Assembly (NCBI GenBank): GCA_965228875.1
Contig: OZ245843.1
Span: 4,260,616 to 4,324,615 of the forward strand
Direction: 5' to 3'
Length of the DNA: 64,000 nucleotides
Source: Thalassobaculaceae bacterium
GTDB lineage: Bacteria; Pseudomonadota; Alphaproteobacteria; Thalassobaculales; Thalassobaculaceae
Below, one piece after another: positions 1 to 6,000 of the stretch (position 1 is its first letter; every line of letters starts with the position of its first letter). Position numbers: made by a program.

Positions 1-3000
1 GAAAAAAAGACCGGGCCGTTTCCGGCCCGGTCTCCCGTCACAGCGATCGATAGTGTTCGATCAGTAGCGGTAGGCTTCCGGCTTGAACGGACCTTCCGTG
101 GTCACGCCGATATACGCGGCCTGCTCCTCGGAGAGCTTGGACAGCGCGGCGTTGATCTTCTTGAGGTGCAGTTCGGCCACCCGCTCGTCCAGCTTCTTCG
201 GCAGGACGTAGACCTGGCGATCGTACTTGTCGTGGTTCTTCCACAGCTCGATCTGCGCCAGGGTCTGGTTCGAGAACGAGGCGCTCATCACGAAGCTCGG
301 GTGGCCGGTGGCGCAGCCGAGGTTCACCAGCCGGCCCTCGGCCAGCAGGATCATCCGCTTGCCGTCCGGGAACACGATCTCGTCCACCTGCGGCTTCACG
401 TTCTCCCACGTGTAGTTGCGCAGGCCGTCCACCTGGATCTCGTTGTCGAAGTGGCCGATGTTGCAGACGATCGCCCGGTCCTTCATCGCCCGCATGTGGT
501 CGACGGTGATGATGTCCTTGTTGCCGGTGGCGGTGACGAAGATGTCGGCGCGCGGCGCGGCGTCGTCCATCGTCACGACCTCGAAGCCCTCCATCGCCGC
601 CTGCAGGGCGCAGATCGGGTCGACCTCGGTGACCACGACCCGGGCGCCGGCGTTGCGCAGCGACTGGGCCGAGCCCTTGCCGACATCGCCATAGCCGGCG
701 ACGCAGGCGACCTTGCCGGCGAACATCACGTCGGTCGCCCGGCGGATGCCGTCGGCCAGGCTCTCTCGGCAGCCGTACAGATTGTCGAACTTCGACTTGG
801 TGACGCTGTCGTTCACGTTGATGGCCGGGACCATCAGCGTGCCCTTCTTGGCCATCTCGTAGAGACGATGCACGCCGGTGGTGGTCTCCTCCGACACGCC
901 CTTCACGTCCTTCATGAGCTCGGGATAATCCTCGTGCATCATGACCGTGAGGTCGCCGCCGTCATCCAGCAGCATGTTCGGGCGCCAGCCGTCCGGACCC
1001 TCGATGGTCTGGCGGATGCACCACTCGTACTCCTCCTCGGTCTCGCCCTTCCAGGCGAAGACAGGGATGCCGGCGGCGGCGATGGCGGCGGCCGCCTGAT
1101 CCTGGGTCGAGAAGATGTTGCACGACGACCAGCGGATCTCGGCGCCGAGCGCGATCAGCGTCTCGATCAGCACGGCGGTCTGGATGGTCATGTGCAGGCA
1201 GCCGGTGATCCGCGCGCCCTTCAGCGGCTGCGACGGACCGTATTCCTCGCGGATCGCCATCAGGCCCGGCATTTCGGTCTCGGCGATCGCGATCTCGCGA
1301 CGGCCCCAGCCGGCCAGCGAGATGTCGGCGACCTTATAGTCGGTGAAGTCGGCCATGGATGTCCTCGTCTCCTGTCTAACGGAGCTGCCCCGGACGGCTT
1401 CGGTGCCCGCGCCCGGGAAGCTAGCTCGCATGGATGTCGGCCTCGGGGCGCGTATAGCAAGGCGGGGGTGGAACGGCAAGGCGAGGGGCGGGCCCGAGGC
1501 CAAATGCCGGACGCCTGCCGCCCGGTCCCGGACCGGCGCAAACGCCGCGCCCGGCCCCTTTCATGGGCCGGGAGACCGCATCCTGCGGGCTACTGAAGCT
1601 CGAGCGGCTTGACGTCCGAACCGATCTCGATCCGCCAGCCGTCCATCATCGTCCCCGCCAGGTTCAGGTGGGAGGTCAGGTAGAACAGCCGGTCGGTCTC
1701 CGGCGTGTCGTAGCCCATCTGCTTGGCCTTGTTGGCGAGTTCGAAGCGCTCGAAGAACCAGGACGGCTGGAACGACTGGTAGTAGAAGCGGGCTGTGACC
1801 GACTCCACCGGCTTGTCGCCGAGCGTTCCGCCCGCGATGCGGTACCGCAGGCGGTCGGTGCCGGTGTTCGGGCTCGCCGCGAACTCCGGATCGTCGCCGG
1901 TGCCGTAGGGCTCGGTCGCCTGCATGAACTCGAACAGCAGGTCGCCCTGGTCGGCGATGTCGGAATCGGGCGACTTGCCGGCGAACTCCGCCGCCGTCAC
2001 CCAGCCGGCCGGCAGCAGGCGGTTGTCCTTGATGTGGGTCACCCGGTGGACGAAGGACGTGGTGAAGTCGCCCGACGCGTTCTGCACCAGTTCCTCGTAG
2101 ATCTGCACCTGGTCGTCGTCTGTGATGACCTCGTAGTGCGGCTGATAGGCGGTCCCGCGCAGCAGCTCGGTCGCCAGGACGTTGCCGGTCGTATCGGTGA
2201 TCAGGCCGCCGGCGTTGGGACGGCCCGAGGCCCAGAGCAGGGTGCCGTCCTTGGCGTGGACCTCGAGCGAGACCCAGGCCCGGCGGAAGGCGACGCCGCT
2301 CGGCAGGCGGTGGCCGGTGGTGTTGGCCACCTCGACCTCGACCTCCAGATCGCCGGACGCGTTCACGGCGGCCGACCTGACCGTCACCGTGCCGACCCGA
2401 CCCTCCTTGATGGACGCGTGCATGGAGTTGACGGCAAGGTCCGGCCCGGTCTCGGCGCCGGTCTCGTAGTCGCTGCTGTCGACGCCGAGCACGTCCGGGA
2501 ACTGCTTGACCATCTCGACCATGAAGCCGTTCAGGCCGACCAGTTCGTGGCGGCTGTAGTCCGCCCGGTGCGGAACGTCGATGTCCTCCGCCGGAAGCTG
2601 ATGGTCGGCGGCGCCGTAGTCGGCGTCCTGGATCGTCGCGATCTGGCTGACCAGCGGCTTGATCTCGTCGGTCAGGTTGCCGTCGCCGTCGACGGTGACG
2701 AACCGGTTGGGCATGTGGCAGTCCTGGCAGCTCGCGAAGTCGGGGCCGTTCTTGTTGTACTTGCCGGGGCCGAACTTCGAGTTGACCCACTCCAGGTAGG
2801 TCGCCTGCTCGATGCTGTGCGGAATGCCCTTGAAGTGCGGGTTCGCCTCCAGCGCGGTGAGGATCGGGAACTCGTCCTCGGTTGCCCCGATGTTCGGCAG
2901 GTTGATGGTGTGGCAGGTGCCACACATCGCCGAGTCCTTGGTGAAGGGCGGCTTGTCCTTGGCCATCGGCGGCGCGACCACGGGCGTGATGCCCATGGCG

Positions 3001-6000
3001 TGGATCATCGGTTTGGGCGCGATGTCCGCAAGCGGACCCAGGAGGAGATCGGCCTCGGATCGCTCGTACAGACCGGTGTTGTTGTTGGCCGTGAAGTACA
3101 GGAAGGCGTCGGTCCACAGGTTGTCGGTCCGGCTCCCGAGCCAGGCCGGGTGATCCTTCTCGATCTGTTTGCTCCAGGCATCGACCTGATCCTTGGTCGC
3201 CGGCGCGATGTGGTGGCAGACCGCGCAGCTGATCCCCTCGCGGGCGAGCTCGCCGTACTCCGCGTCGGCTATCGGATGATAGGGCGTCGGCGGGATCGGC
3301 TGGTTCGGGTACGGCGTGAACGGCGGGGTCCGCTCCTGCTCCCTGGTCAGCGGCTCGGTCAGGTAGAAGATCTCGGGATTGAACTTCGGATCGAGGATGC
3401 CGTCATGGGGTAGGGCGGGCTTGCCTTCGGCGATCCGTTTGGCGTTCTCGTCGAGGCCCATCTGGCGCAGGCCCATCGCGCCGTGGCAGCGCAGGCACGT
3501 GTCGGCCAGCGCCTGCTGGGTGTCCTGAACGGCCTGCGGACCCGGCTTGCCGCCCTTCAGCGCCCCGTTCTCCTCCAGCAGGATGATCATCTCGCTCTCG
3601 AGCTGGGCATGGAAGATCGGGTCGCGCCCGGCCAGCCCCATCGGCGACCAGCGCCACTCGCCATACGGGGAGACGTTGTAGCCGTCGCCGTAGCCCGATC
3701 CGGTGGAGACGAACATGGACACGCCCGACGGCGCGCCGCCGAGGCCGCCGTGGCAGCCCATGCAGTTCGACGAGGTGATGTAGTGCTGCGGATCGGTGCT
3801 CGGATAGACGTTGTCGGAATACTCCGACGGCAGGGCGAAGCGCTCGATCGCCGTGGCGCCGGGATCGGCGGCCATCAGCGACAGATCGAGATAGGCCGCC
3901 AGGAAATCCGCGTTCGGCGCCGGCAGCGGCGCGTCGTGCGGGGCATCGGCCGCGCTCGCCGGTGCCGGGGCGTGCTCGTTGCGGACCGGTGTCTGCGTGG
4001 CCTCCTCCGGCGAGAAGAACGGCCGCTGCTGGGGCGGCAGGTTCAGCTTGGCGAACAGCGCGTCGCGCTCGGCCTTGGGGGCGGGCTGCATGTAGCTGTC
4101 GATGATGTCCCAGACGGCCTTGGGCTTGCCGCCGTCCTTCACCGCGCCGACCTTGGCGTGCGTCGTCAGGTAGTCCTTGGAGCGCCAGGAGTTGTCGACC
4201 TTGAACTGCAGCGGGATCTTCTTCGGGTCGTAGTTGCTGTCGGACGCGAAGGTGTTGCCGTCCTCGGCCGAGGCGTGGCAGCGGATGCAGGTGCCGACGC
4301 CGAATCCGGAGACCGGAACGGCGTCGCCGTTGTCCACGTTGGAGTTGGCGCCGGGCTTGTCGAAGGACGACCCCTTGAACGGCCCGGCCCAGAACCAGCC
4401 GTCCTTGGACTTGCCGCCCTCGTCCTGGATCATGATCGTCCAGCCGACCAGCAGGTCCGCCAGAAGCGCTTCGTAAATCTGGGGATTGTTCTTCAGGTAC
4501 GGCGTCTGGGACAGCGTTTGGTAGAGCGCCGCGGGCGGGTTGAACATCTCCTTGATGAGGATCGCGCCCTGGGGCACCGGGCCCTGGCGGCCGCCGTCGA
4601 CCCAGGCCGCGGCCTCGGGCGAGTAGTGAATGCGCACGGCCGGATGGGTGCCGTAGTAGTCGGCGCGGATGAAGGGGCCGGTGTCGCGGATCTTGACGTC
4701 GACCTTCCAGCCCTCGAGGCCGGCATAGCTTCGGTCGAGGACCCAAGGGTAGAGAACCTCGAGTTCGTAGTCCTGCAGCGGCATCGAACTCGGCATCGCC
4801 GGCAGCTTCTGGGGGTCGGCCGCAACCGGGGCGGAGTTCAGGCCCATGAGCGTGGCAGCGGCCACGATCATCGCCTTAAGCGCATTCCTCATCAGTCGAC
4901 CCTCTCCGAAGCATTGATCTTGTTTTTTCGGTAAGGGCAACAGGTAGGTTAAGGGATGTCAACCATAACGGTTGTCATGGGGCGTGAAATAACACCGTGG
5001 TTCGAGGGTCAGCGGCCCGGCGGCAACCCCGGCGGCAACCCCGGCGGCGGTCGCCTCGCGCCCGCGTTCCGACGGGAGGCGGCGGGCGGACGCTGTCAGA
5101 CCGCGCCGCGCAGCCGATCGCCCAACTCGCCCATGCGCTCGGCCTCCAGATTGGCGAAGGCGAGGCGGAGATACGGATCCTGACCCGGGCCGAAGACCGT
5201 TCCGGGCAGCGAGAGGACGCCCTGTTCCTGCGCCAGGCGCCGGGCCACCGTGTGGGCCGTCTCGCCGTCGAAGGGATGGCGCACGTAGGCGAAATAGGCG
5301 CCGGTCGAGACCAGGTCGAAGCCCAGGTTTCCGGACGAGAACACGTCGAGCAGCGCCTGGCGGCGGCCGGCCATCATCTCGCGTTTCCCGGCCGCCCAGG
5401 GCCAGAGATGCTGAAGCGCGTACAGCGCGCCGTCCTGGCCGATTCGGGCGGCGCAGATCGACATGGTGTCCATCAGTTTCGCCACCTGCTCGATGAAGGC
5501 CGCTCCGGCCACGATCGAGCCGACCCGGTAGCCGGTCAGGCTGAACGCCTTGGAGAAGCTGTAGAGCTGGATCACCGTCGCGCCCCAGAGCGGATCGGAG
5601 AACAGGGAATGGCGCGGCTCCGCCGGGTTGACGAAGTCCTTGTAGGTCTCGTCCAGGATCAGCGCGATTCCCCGCTCGGCGCAGAGGTCGCGGAACCGGG
5701 CGATCACCTCCGGCGGAATGACGGCGCCGGTCGGGTTGTTCGGGGTCACAAGCAGCAGGGCGCGGGTGCGCTCGGTGATGAGGGTCGCCGCCTCGTCCGG
5801 GTCCGGCACGCCGCCGCGGTCGGCGCGGAACGGCAGGTGGACGGCGTCGATGCCGAGGGAGTCGAGCCACATCTGGTGATTGAAGTAGTACGGCAGCGGC
5901 AGGATCACCTCGTCGCCGCGCCGGGCCAGCGCCATGATCGTCAGGCAGTAGGCCTGGTTGCAGCCGGCCGTGATCTGCACGTTGGCCGGCGCGATCCCGC

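Follow-up and report, generated by a model that had tools for sequence, protein, structure and literature searches.

In the window, a stretch of 64,000 nucleotides from a Thalassobaculaceae genome, a minus-strand open reading frame at 1590-4892 encodes a protein of 1100 amino acids, with its ATG start at 4892-4890 and its TAG stop at 1592-1590. The whole gene (1590..4892; 1100 codons plus the stop) occurs in one copy in the host genome, and every feature described below lies on the same strand. A Shine-Dalgarno-like sequence, GGAGAGGG, was recognized by eye at 4900..4907, 7 nt upstream of the ATG. Judged by its sequence, the N-terminal segment MRNALKAMIVAAATLMGLNSAPVAA/DP looks like a Sec signal peptide; residues 1-25 (4818..4892) were assigned by eye as the putative signal peptide, with putative cleavage at VAA/DP. 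The genome-wide survey's note had described a secreted 1100-aa protein with six CxxCH haem-binding motifs, and the reading frame and all six motifs were confirmed, along with a putative signal peptide.

The six motifs begin at residues 202, 377, 466, 556, 657 and 722 and account for all 12 cysteines of the protein. When the protein was shuffled 2000 times, CxxCH appeared 0.006 times on average and never more than once. The strong conservation claimed for the motifs was also seen here, since their Cys and His are invariant with the sole exception of C559 (79/80). CxxCH 1 (CIRCH, 202-206; 4275..4289), placed by motif scan and family alignment, belongs to the haem of the P460-like head described below. 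CxxCH 2 (CMGCH, 377-381; 3750..3764), found by motif scan, is the point at which the head is predicted by docking to make contact. CxxCH 3 (CLRCH, 466-470; 3483..3497) would correspond, by collinearity, to catalytic haem 2 of MccSep, the Sec-dependent polysulfide reductase of Geobacter sulfurreducens. CxxCH 4 (CAVCH, 556-560; 3213..3227) and CxxCH 5 (CGTCH, 657-661; 2910..2924), which opens the invariant CGTCHTINLPN, were located by motif scan and family alignment. For CxxCH 6 (CQDCH, 722-726; 2715..2729) these were joined by a profile match, its SCQDCHMP being the same as in 5ZE8, the low-potential penta-haem cytochrome c552 of Thermochromatium tepidum.

The relatives had been described as proteins of 915-1235 aa from Pseudomonadota, Acidobacteriota, Bacteroidota and Planctomycetota, named 'hypothetical protein', 'cytochrome c553', 'mono/diheme cytochrome c family protein' or 'Cytochrome P460', and lengths, phyla and names were all found to be so. 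The survey's figure of 1,827 clusters at E<=1e-30 was not reproduced: phmmer against 50%-identity representatives gave 275 at that threshold, 1045 at E<=1e-10 and 1718 at E<=1e-3, and a search of 90% clusters gave 980 at E<=1e-3 from 8000 scored candidates. About 130 columns are invariant among relatives with 43-80% identity. Pfam families had been said to match only below their cut-offs. This holds for Cytochrome_P460 (E 0.038 at 88-211, as given) and fails at whole-protein level for three generic families, PF13442 (34.2 vs a curated cut-off of 27), PF14522 (26.0 vs 24.8) and PF00034 (21.7 vs 21.3), which reach their cut-offs because short CxxCH-centred pieces add up. The gene is real, widely conserved and so far unstudied. 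Our literature search found no paper on a P460-pentahaem fusion, and the words fused, fusion and multidomain are all absent from the 2025 superfamily review (PMC11928373).

Residues 27-245 (4158..4814) form the N-terminal head, a haem domain of the cytochrome P460/c'-beta superfamily. The survey had read a P460 fold from the ranking of structure matches, and in Foldseek the top 11 rows were indeed all P460 or c'-beta, with a best E of 0.021 and none at <=0.001. A hhalign comparison of the 76-sequence head alignment with 30 stand-alone PF16694 proteins gave a probability of 97.8% and an E of 9.5e-13 over 101 columns. PF16694 was detected at E<=1e-3 in 23 of 40 diverse family representatives, above the 27-bit cut-off in 11 of these 23, and a precomputed PF16694 match is present in 21 of the best 120 relatives listed. 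Two other comparisons returned little: hhalign of the head with one stand-alone P460 gave a probability of 1% over 14 columns, and the head profile searched against the PDB found P460 at E 2.3 and 3.9, ranked under spurious Ig-domain matches (E 0.008-0.24). The alignment and the matches in relatives uphold the earlier reading and show that the head is homologous to the superfamily, beyond mere fold-rank similarity.

The survey had asked whether the cross-linking Lys of true cytochromes P460 is present. At alignment level it is, as Lys114 (4551..4553) stands on that column in all 76 heads, aligned both to Lys78 of McP460 and to the column at which stand-alone P460s have their Lys. The PDGAxIxKE of the head aligns with PDGAILVK of McP460, whose K, chain index 61, is Lys78 in Table 2 of the review (PMC11928373). 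The conservation reported for K88-E89-M90, here K114, E115 and M116, amounts to 76/76, 76/76 and 74/76, and in the alignment Thermus c'-beta holds Phe61 at the Lys114 column. Thr152 (4437..4439) was traced, via alignments and the same Table 2, to the column where active P460s carry the distal proton-relay carboxylate (Glu96/Asp102). The canonical carboxylate was not found in any of the 76 heads, which carry Thr (65), Ala (6), Val (4) or Ser (1) at this column. Lys114 would be cross-linked to the haem and the head haem would be five-coordinate; the invariant His83 or Met116 could act as a sixth ligand of haem 1. To our knowledge, a haem of this type is five-coordinate and binds small ligands in all known members of the superfamily.

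An Ala/Pro-rich linker (residues 251-345; 3858..4142), 43-115 aa long in relatives, separates the head from a five-haem domain of the c552/ExtKL (PHC) type (346-826; 2415..3857) that is larger than in 5ZE8. The protein ends in an Ig-like beta-sandwich (827-1100; 1593..2414) with an inserted subdomain at ~890-1010, assigned from secondary structure and from sandwich matches at positions 482-755 of the C-part model. As had been claimed, 5ze8 was the sole Foldseek match of the C part at E<=0.001 (E 7.1e-9); it was also recovered by profile search (E 0.0011). Against the NCBIfam ExtKL model the protein scores 25.4 bits, far short of the 250-bit cut-off, with the match at residues 846-882. Two motifs stand out, EWRWSPMGLAGRDP at 412-425 (3618..3659), 80/80 at the listed positions, and the invariant loop GHRLPSGVAFRR at 860-871 (2280..2315), which has H..P.G..FR in common with 5ZE8 and opens with the GHRxPSG that the survey had pointed out (860-866, 80/80 at each fixed position). 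This loop probably corresponds to the Sec loop of MccSep (D323-G324-U325-P326), with Val867 (80/80) at the deduced Sec column. The catalytic Cys and Sec of MccSep are both absent, and no Cys lies outside CxxCH.

The complex of head and pentahaem module was predicted as two parts of one chain, with the haems left out. An ipSAE of 0.88 was obtained (0.87, 0.89 and 0.88 in three runs), with 0.00 for the best control; 116 of 157 solved complexes attain the mark used, as do 2 of 215 mismatched pairs, counts that are only rough here because our own alignments were used. The runs had at least 94% of contacts in common, and partner pLDDT was at least 86. Among the residues of the predicted interface are F197-S217 around CxxCH 1 and S375-C380 of CxxCH 2, and conservation is higher in the interface columns than elsewhere, both in the head (0.67 vs 0.53) and in the C part (0.63 vs 0.58). 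No PDB match in the structure searches spanned both head and C part, so the pass is not due to a solved look-alike. The haem motif of the head is thereby predicted to pack on CxxCH 2, the first of the five in the pentahaem module. Haem 1 of MccSep is described as a solvent-exposed electron port and electron entry point (bioRxiv 10.1101/2025.11.18.688581).

Since the P460-type haem is predicted to dock where MccSep has its electron port, we take this hexahaem c-type cytochrome, soluble and periplasmic, for a self-wired oxidoreductase of the P460 type that acts on a small molecule, and hold this to be somewhat probable. It combines two known modules, a one-haem P460/c'-beta-type head and a pentahaem-plus-Ig-like module, across an Ala/Pro-rich linker of varying length. 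A small molecule would bind at the P460-type haem, and electrons would travel along the five c-haems, which would hand them to, or take them from, a general soluble partner in the periplasm. As to the chemistry, oxidation of a small nitrogen compound would be most likely, with hydroxylamine or NO as our leading guess; a group other than the canonical carboxylate would then have to serve as base, and the invariant His83 or Glu115 is a candidate. Against this reading stands the P460 of Nitrosomonas sp. AL212, which has the Lys but not the carboxylate that active P460s need, and which does not oxidize hydroxylamine (Table 2, PMC11928373). We infer the enzyme activity, the substrate and the direction of electron flow. 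The survey had remarked that no neighbouring gene hints at the substrate, and we likewise found no conserved gene neighbour and no hint from a regulator site or expression datum. Neither nirK nor nirS was found in the host genome, which leaves no obvious internal supply of NO from denitrification. Joined as it is to a five-haem electron wire, the P460-type ligand-binding haem domain points to a redox enzyme of marine bacteria that is self-wired and acts on a small molecule.

Another possible explanation, which we consider unlikely, is that catalysis takes place in the pentahaem/Ig-like module, at CxxCH 3 beside the invariant GHRxPSGVxFRR loop and the inserted subdomain, and that the head is an electron entry/exit haem or a second, regulatory ligand site. 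MccSep, the only characterized family member, is described as catalyzing at haem 2 with a residue of an Ig-like-domain loop that reaches a haem (bioRxiv 10.1101/2025.11.18.688581), and its electron port is the equivalent of the haem at which our head is predicted to dock. The pentahaem/Ig part, with a mean column identity of 47% vs 41% for the head, holds the most conserved motifs, which fits a catalytic site there; besides the loop and EWRWSPMGLAGRDP, CHTINLPN and KDNR are invariant in the 80-sequence alignment. Only four His outside the motifs are invariant or near-invariant (H692, H782, H861, H949), and as distal ligands for five haems they would possibly leave one haem open, although one of the invariant M418, M473, M629 and M727 could be the fifth ligand. 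In work on cable bacteria, AlphaFold models led small and large pentahaem cytochromes of this family to be classed as potential catalysts in which one haem is five-coordinate (PMC11976967). However, the MccSep machinery is missing, the haem equivalence and the Sec column are themselves deduced, and the Lys at the cross-link column of 76/76 heads would be left unexplained.

Less probable still is a protein that is not an enzyme: a periplasmic gas- or ligand-binding or purely electron-carrying cytochrome on a haem wire, such as a c'-beta-like NO buffer, sensor or electron store. NO binding is presumed for cytochromes c'-beta, which have the same fold, but these carry Phe or Met where all 76 heads have Lys (Table 2, PMC11928373). 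The missing carboxylate would suit such a protein, and T. tepidum c552 is itself described without an assigned function. Nevertheless, the invariant columns and the 1100-aa multi-domain build would exceed the usual needs of a carrier, and a sensor would be expected beside a signalling partner, of which none is conserved. A sulfur-compound oxidoreductase (polysulfide, thiosulfate or sulfite) of the MccSep/ExtKL or TsdA kind seems very improbable, for although the C part is in the structural family of MccSep and a role in sulfur metabolism has been suggested for T. tepidum c552, that chemistry is described as defined by His/Cys haem ligation and a Sec/Cys nucleophile, whereas here there is no free Cys, Val lies at the deduced Sec column, the ExtKL model stays below its cut-off and the host genome has no SoxB above cut-off.

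The self-wired P460-type oxidoreductase that we prefer has several close counterparts. The head was compared with P460 of N. europaea (2JE3), M. capsulatus (6HIU) and Nitrosomonas sp. AL212 (6AMG) and with c'-beta (6HIH, 7EAD, 7S5O). It has its haem motif at the C-terminal end of the domain, as they do, with PDGxxIxK, VMxKD and GW(G/F) in common, and its Lys at the cross-link column is that of cytochromes P460. The solved chains are single-domain monohaem proteins of ~135-160 residues, whereas here the domain heads an 1100-aa hexahaem protein, has a helical insertion of ~30 residues that separates the Lys strand from the one that follows it, and carries Thr in place of the distal Glu/Asp of active P460 enzymes. 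The C part has SCQxCHMP and H..P.G..FR in common with 5ZE8, which has 435 aa against 755 aa in the matching part here, lacks the large insertions in haem domain and sandwich, and is without a P460 head.

Hydroxylamine oxidoreductase (HAO), a trimer with eight haems, has an unrelated fold and a Tyr rather than Lys cross-link, and no HAO entry was among the rows listed in the structure searches of the C-part model. The analogy is functional only, in that a single HAO chain connects several c-haems to a catalytic, cross-linked haem of the P460 type; the review contrasts HAO with the cytochromes P460 (PMC11928373). MccSep/ExtKL has the same architecture of pentahaem cap and Ig-like stem, but its haem ligand Cys239 and its Sec325 are absent here, and it is described as a homotetramer that has no additional haem domain, in contrast to the P460-type head (bioRxiv 10.1101/2025.11.18.688581). 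The same design, an enlarged c552/ExtKL-family pentahaem cytochrome with a separate ligand-binding haem domain in one chain, is seen by description in lPHCtX of cable bacteria and in Gsu2801 (PMC11976967). The added domain of lPHCtX is a b-haem truncated haemoglobin, described there as unique to cable bacteria, while the protein presented here carries a c-haem P460-type domain.

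The open reading frame runs on the minus strand of the window from an ATG at 4892 to a TAG at 1592-1590 and encodes 1100 residues, with GGAGAGGG located 7 nt 5' of the ATG on the same strand. Read by eye, the N-terminus (MRNALKAMIVAAATLMGLNSAPVAA/DP) appears to be a Sec signal peptide and, since it contains no Cys, the protein would not be a lipoprotein. CxxCH motifs are found at residues 202, 377, 466, 556, 657 and 722, and all 12 Cys of the protein fall within these six motifs. Shuffled versions of the protein contained a mean of 0.006 CxxCH motifs and a maximum of one, and the six-haem-motif gene claimed in the genome-wide survey's note is therefore real and above chance. 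It is present as one copy in the complete 4.96-Mb genome. A single-sequence search of PDB sequences with the protein gave no matches at E<=10. Positions 1300-5300 of the window were scanned for promoters and terminators; no promoter-like sites were found, and the one terminator-like site lies inside the gene.

The head was modeled with AlphaFold (residues 27-250, alignment of 76 sequences; pLDDT 83, pTM 0.83), and the model has the characteristic beta-sheet fold of the P460/c'-beta superfamily. The Foldseek ranking reported earlier was obtained again, as the top 11 rows were all P460 or c'-beta, with a best E of 0.021 and none at or below 0.001. A set of 30 stand-alone PF16694 proteins was assembled from 401 sampled Pseudomonadota genomes, 39 of which had a match. 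In a profile comparison, the head profile matched this set over 101 columns with a probability of 97.8% and an E of 9.5e-13. PF16694 was also detected at E<=1e-3 in 23 of 40 diverse family representatives (11 above 27 bits and one at exactly 27.0); three of the 17 representatives lacking such a match were judged to be N-terminal fragments. By profile comparison and PF16694 in the relatives, the assignment of the head to the P460/c'-beta superfamily is firm. For the studied protein alone, direct sequence support for P460 is weak: it scored 14.8 bits against PF16694 (cut-off 27; E 0.038), its head profile matched P460 chains of the PDB only at E 2.3 and 3.9, ranked under spurious Ig-domain matches, and hhalign of the head with one stand-alone P460 of the same genome covered 14 columns at a probability of 1%. 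The CIRCH motif at 202-206, near the C-terminal end of the head, is present in all 76 heads and aligns with the CxxCH of the stand-alone members. Its His is the putative proximal ligand of the head haem.

According to the available text of a 2025 review, P460s are defined by a Lys-haem cross-link, made by Lys70, Lys78 or Lys106 in three solved P460s, and the equivalent residue is Met79, Phe61 or Phe61 in three c'-beta proteins (PMC11928373). Whether the hexahaem cytochrome has this Lys had been left open in the survey's note. When the head profile was compared with the PDB, the family motif PDGAxIIKE aligned with PDGAILVK of chain 9hrk. The K of the latter is Lys78, since it is at index 61 of a 144-residue chain whose numbering ends at 161. 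K114 thus aligns with Lys78 of McP460, and in the profile-profile alignment it also falls on the cross-link Lys column of the stand-alone P460s, a column occupied by Phe61 in the Thermus c'-beta protein 7ead. K114, E115 and H83 are each found in 76/76 heads and M116 in 74/76.

Hydroxylamine oxidation also needs a distal carboxylate, Glu96 or Asp102, and this position is Ala in the inactive protein of Nitrosomonas sp. AL212 and Gly82 in Thermus c'-beta, as stated in the same text (PMC11928373). The carboxylate column was located by following the shared VMxKD strand from Gly82 of 7ead, which led to T152. This column contains Thr in 65 heads, Ala in six, Val in four and Ser in one, and the Glu or Asp of the hydroxylamine-oxidizing P460s is absent from all 76. 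The head is therefore of the P460 type by its Lys, without the canonical proton relay, and the Lys114-haem cross-link is putative. By inference only, from an ungapped extension, the distal capping residue would lie near T82/H83; the profile alignment begins past it. H83, E115 and M116 are candidates for a base, a cap or a sixth ligand. A stand-alone P460-family gene was also seen in the same genome, outside the window (G000:C1:4924936-4925289, plus strand; positions 1192-1893 of its locus). This 233-aa ORF scored 38.6 bits against PF16694, and its best solved relative is 7ead (E 6.6e-10). It is of the P460 type by the Lys criterion, because the Lys of its VIAKE is opposite Phe61 in the VIVFD of 7ead.

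On a narrow balance of probability, we favor a self-wired small-molecule oxidoreductase with its substrate site at the P460-type haem. Within this reading, oxidation of hydroxylamine or NO is the foremost guess, and it is rather unlikely overall. We put it forward tentatively, in the form of a one-chain analogue of HAO in which a Lys-cross-linked P460 haem, wired to five c-haems, would oxidize hydroxylamine (or NO or hydrazine). Electrons would pass to the respiratory chain of ordinary aerobic marine heterotrophs, with Roseobacter-group genera, Hahella, Gilvimarinus, Saprospiraceae and Acidobacteriota as hosts, and the base would be one other than the canonical carboxylate.

The C part (residues 346-1100) was modeled from an alignment of 80 sequences with a pLDDT of 90 and a pTM of 0.92, and this model takes in the middle part that had been left unmodeled. 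Five CxxCH motifs lie in a helical domain that is followed by an Ig-like beta-sandwich, as in 5ZE8, the pentahaem cytochrome c552 of Thermochromatium tepidum, and in ExtKL of Geobacter sulfurreducens. From this model, the C-terminal sandwich belongs with the five haem motifs to a single enlarged module of the c552 type, of 755 aa compared to 435 aa for 5ZE8, with an inserted subdomain at about residues 890-1010. A conserved H..P.G..FR loop that opens the Ig-like domain (GHRLPSGVAFRR) aligned with PHAMPTGAPFRN of 5ZE8. It also aligned with two 5ZE8-like ORFs in hhalign (probability 84-86%), where the match with the C-part profile was confined to the Ig-like loop region, 51-54 columns. In the family the loop reads GHRxPSGVxFRR and is invariant in the 80 C-part sequences. 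Only four His outside the motifs are invariant or nearly so, H692 (79/80), H782 (80/80), H861 (80/80) and H949 (78/80), and there are four invariant Met. One of the five C-part haems may therefore be Met-ligated or open.

Catalysis could instead take place in this pentahaem/Ig module, which is the main rival reading and one that we consider unlikely next to a head in which the cross-link Lys is invariant. Another possible explanation is that the protein has a non-enzymatic ligand-binding or carrier role. It would place the same P460-type haem pocket and pentahaem wire in a protein without catalysis, and we judge it to be less likely again.

The Ig-like loop also brings in the ExtKL protein (MccSep), and the NCBIfam ExtKL model (NF040886) matches residues 846-882 with 25.4 bits against a cut-off of 250. 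MccSep is described in the available text of a preprint as a homotetrameric polysulfide reductase with a five-haem cap and an Ig-like stem, in which haem 1 is the proposed electron entry, haem 2 is His/Cys-ligated via Cys239, and Sec325 lies on a D-G-U-P loop of the Ig-like domain (bioRxiv 10.1101/2025.11.18.688581). The hexahaem cytochrome differs at both sites. Having no Cys outside the six CxxCH motifs, it lacks the Cys239 ligand, and with no free Cys and no in-frame TGA it lacks Sec or Cys at the U325 position. From the xGxP pattern shared with the 5ZE8-like ORFs (TGAP), the column of Sec325 is probably that of V867, which is Val in 80/80 sequences. Despite the invariant GHRxPSGVxFRR loop, sulfur chemistry of the MccSep kind is thus highly improbable for the family, and MccSep chemistry as such was excluded by the missing free Cys and by V867 at the presumed Sec column.

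As a separate observation, the ExtKL model had matches at E<=1e-3 in 123 of the 401 sampled Pseudomonadota genomes, none over its cut-off. The matching ORFs are roughly 360-660 aa long, mostly 400-470 aa, and all 12 of the loci that were read (L112-L123) have five CxxCH motifs. In two of them (L113 1213-2454 and L114 1204-2469, both minus strand), H..PTGAPFR is accompanied by an additional Cys between the fourth and fifth haem motifs, as in MccSep. These ORFs look like a large and mostly unstudied family.

Returning to a self-wired oxidoreductase, the head and C-part alignments were entered as two chains in a complex prediction. For these two segments of one chain, predicted with no haems, ipSAE was 0.88 (runs of 0.87, 0.89 and 0.88) compared to 0.00 in all three controls. 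There were 131-140 contacts with at least 94% agreement between runs and a partner pLDDT of at least 86. Among 157 solved complexes, 116 attained this ipSAE mark, and among 215 mismatched pairs, two did; these counts are only rough here since our own alignments were used. Structure and profile searches of the parts found no PDB match spanning both, and the docking is thus not obviously explained by recall of a solved complex. The predicted interface comprises F197-S217 around CxxCH 1 and S375-C380 of CxxCH 2, with further segments at P628-G634, T753-L766 and L515-E520; the Lys114 strand is outside this list. Column conservation was higher in the interface than in the rest, at 0.67 vs 0.53 for the head and 0.63 vs 0.58 for the C part, and the linker between the parts is 43-115 residues long in relatives. 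If the docking is right, the haem edge of the head would abut the haem used by MccSep as its electron port.

Of the 8000 candidates scored in a word-indexed search, 980 were relatives at E<=1e-3. The best 120 of these are 915-1235 aa long and are named hypothetical protein, cytochrome c553, mono/diheme cytochrome c family protein or cytochrome P460, and the closest named relative among them is from Thalassobaculum salexigens (82% identity). An exhaustive phmmer search of 50%-identity representatives gave 1718 matches at E<=1e-3, 1045 at E<=1e-10 and 275 at E<=1e-30; the 1,827 counted at the last threshold in the survey's note were not reproduced. Two peptide patterns were compared with a collection of one genome per species (185,579 species), and 437 of the 450 stretches matched encode a relative. 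The 80 loci retained come from Alphaproteobacteria (Thalassobaculum, a Rhodospirillum sp. and many Roseobacter-group genera), Gammaproteobacteria (Hahella, Gilvimarinus, Saccharospirillum, Thalassolituus and Kangiella), Bacteroidota (Saprospiraceae, Lewinellaceae and Chitinophagales), Acidobacteriota, Planctomycetota, Gemmatimonadales, SAR324 and Chthoniobacteraceae. The carriers are mostly non-nitrifying heterotrophs of marine and saline origin. Six CxxCH motifs are present in 77/80 ORFs and five in 3/80; of the latter, two probably reflect N-terminal truncation (L043, L058) and one a C559R row. Occurrence is patchy: the gene was present in four of the 11 genomes of its genus, counting its own, in 2 of 14 other genera within the family and in 1 of 16 additional genomes from the class. 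A homologue in a genome of the same family (G421:C34:41729-43870) has an in-frame TAA and may be a pseudogene or contain a sequencing error. One partial family member (P0124) is labeled Laminaria digitata, a brown alga. Its DNA is probably that of a bacterium associated with the alga in the algal assembly, in keeping with the marine, coral and seawater samples from which some carriers originate.

A head-profile search of proteins of 106-454 aa gave 149 matches; those listed were mostly partial family members on short contigs, with no bridging stand-alone P460 among them. The shorter matches of 660-776 aa that were read look like truncated gene calls, because they lack a signal peptide and start mid-domain. 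Clusters of 544-701 aa in the ESM Atlas resemble the C part (scores 0.94-0.98) and may be leads for a head-less version, or may be fragments too. Three relatives of 1428-1552 aa (P0334, P0341 and P0371) were also seen, in which the C-part match begins at residues 815-932. No Pfam family reached E<=1e-3 in these proteins, and a different head may therefore occupy their N-terminal 800-900 residues.

In the window, the gene is flanked downstream by an S-adenosylhomocysteine hydrolase gene (61-1503, minus strand) and upstream by an aminotransferase gene (5096-6307, minus strand). Further upstream, at 6335-11463 (minus strand) and 11335-14796 (plus strand), are genes for a TPR protein, a homologue of the PEP-utilizing enzyme I, an EIIA-Man-domain protein and aconitase, followed by a MipA-family gene at 14872-15750. 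These TPR, enzyme I, EIIA-Man, aconitase and MipA genes showed no link to the hexahaem cytochrome in other genomes. When the ORFs of the 80 related loci and the window were clustered, no conserved neighbor was found. The commonest clusters are generic families at varying distance and strand, identified by eye as an ABC ATPase (17 loci), a short-chain dehydrogenase (8) and a LysR-type regulator (6). A 272-aa ORF lies directly upstream in only six loci, including Saprospiraceae, Lewinellaceae and other Bacteroidota MAGs. The 75 upstream regions contained no FNR/Dnr-type site (TTGAT-N4-ATCAA) with at most one mismatch, and 10 with at most two, compared to 5 in control regions. For an NnrR-type site the numbers were 1/75 and 17 (8 in controls), and no shared regulator site or enriched palindrome was found in these regions. 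The sequencing runs listed included no RNA data set. The genome itself gave no match for nirK or nirS and none above the cut-off for SoxB; the nosZ search (PF18764), without a match as well, is uninformative, since its control matched nowhere.

If the protein is an HAO analogue, it would mean unrecognized, widespread hydroxylamine turnover by heterotrophs and marine NO/N2O formation. A catalytic head would more generally represent a new enzyme class of the nitrogen cycle (or of other small-molecule chemistry) in abundant bacteria and a natural test of the role of the Lys cross-link without the canonical carboxylate. If the pentahaem part is catalytic, the protein would add to a family in which the first function to be reported, Sec-dependent polysulfide reduction, was published only in 2025. 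Whichever part is catalytic, the protein is open to direct expression and assay, as it is soluble and lacks a conserved neighbor gene.

Literature searches, which covered preprints without their supplements, found no published description of a P460-multihaem fusion and no prior description of the P460-pentahaem fusion. A preprint on the modularity of multihaem cytochromes mentions haem gain in the c552 family, and "P460" is absent from its main text. The available text of the 2025 review presents P460s as small, stand-alone haem proteins that serve to model hydroxylamine oxidation and are a source of N2O (PMC11928373). Here, a P460 head with the cross-link Lys is part of an 1100-aa hexahaem protein and is predicted to sit at the electron port of a wire of five haems. 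As far as the available text of a study of cable bacteria goes, c552, ExtKL and Gsu2801 make up one family of pentahaem cytochromes, in which small and large forms occur and large forms are fused to truncated haemoglobin domains (PMC11976967). These fusions are the closest precedent for a ligand-binding haem domain on a pentahaem wire.
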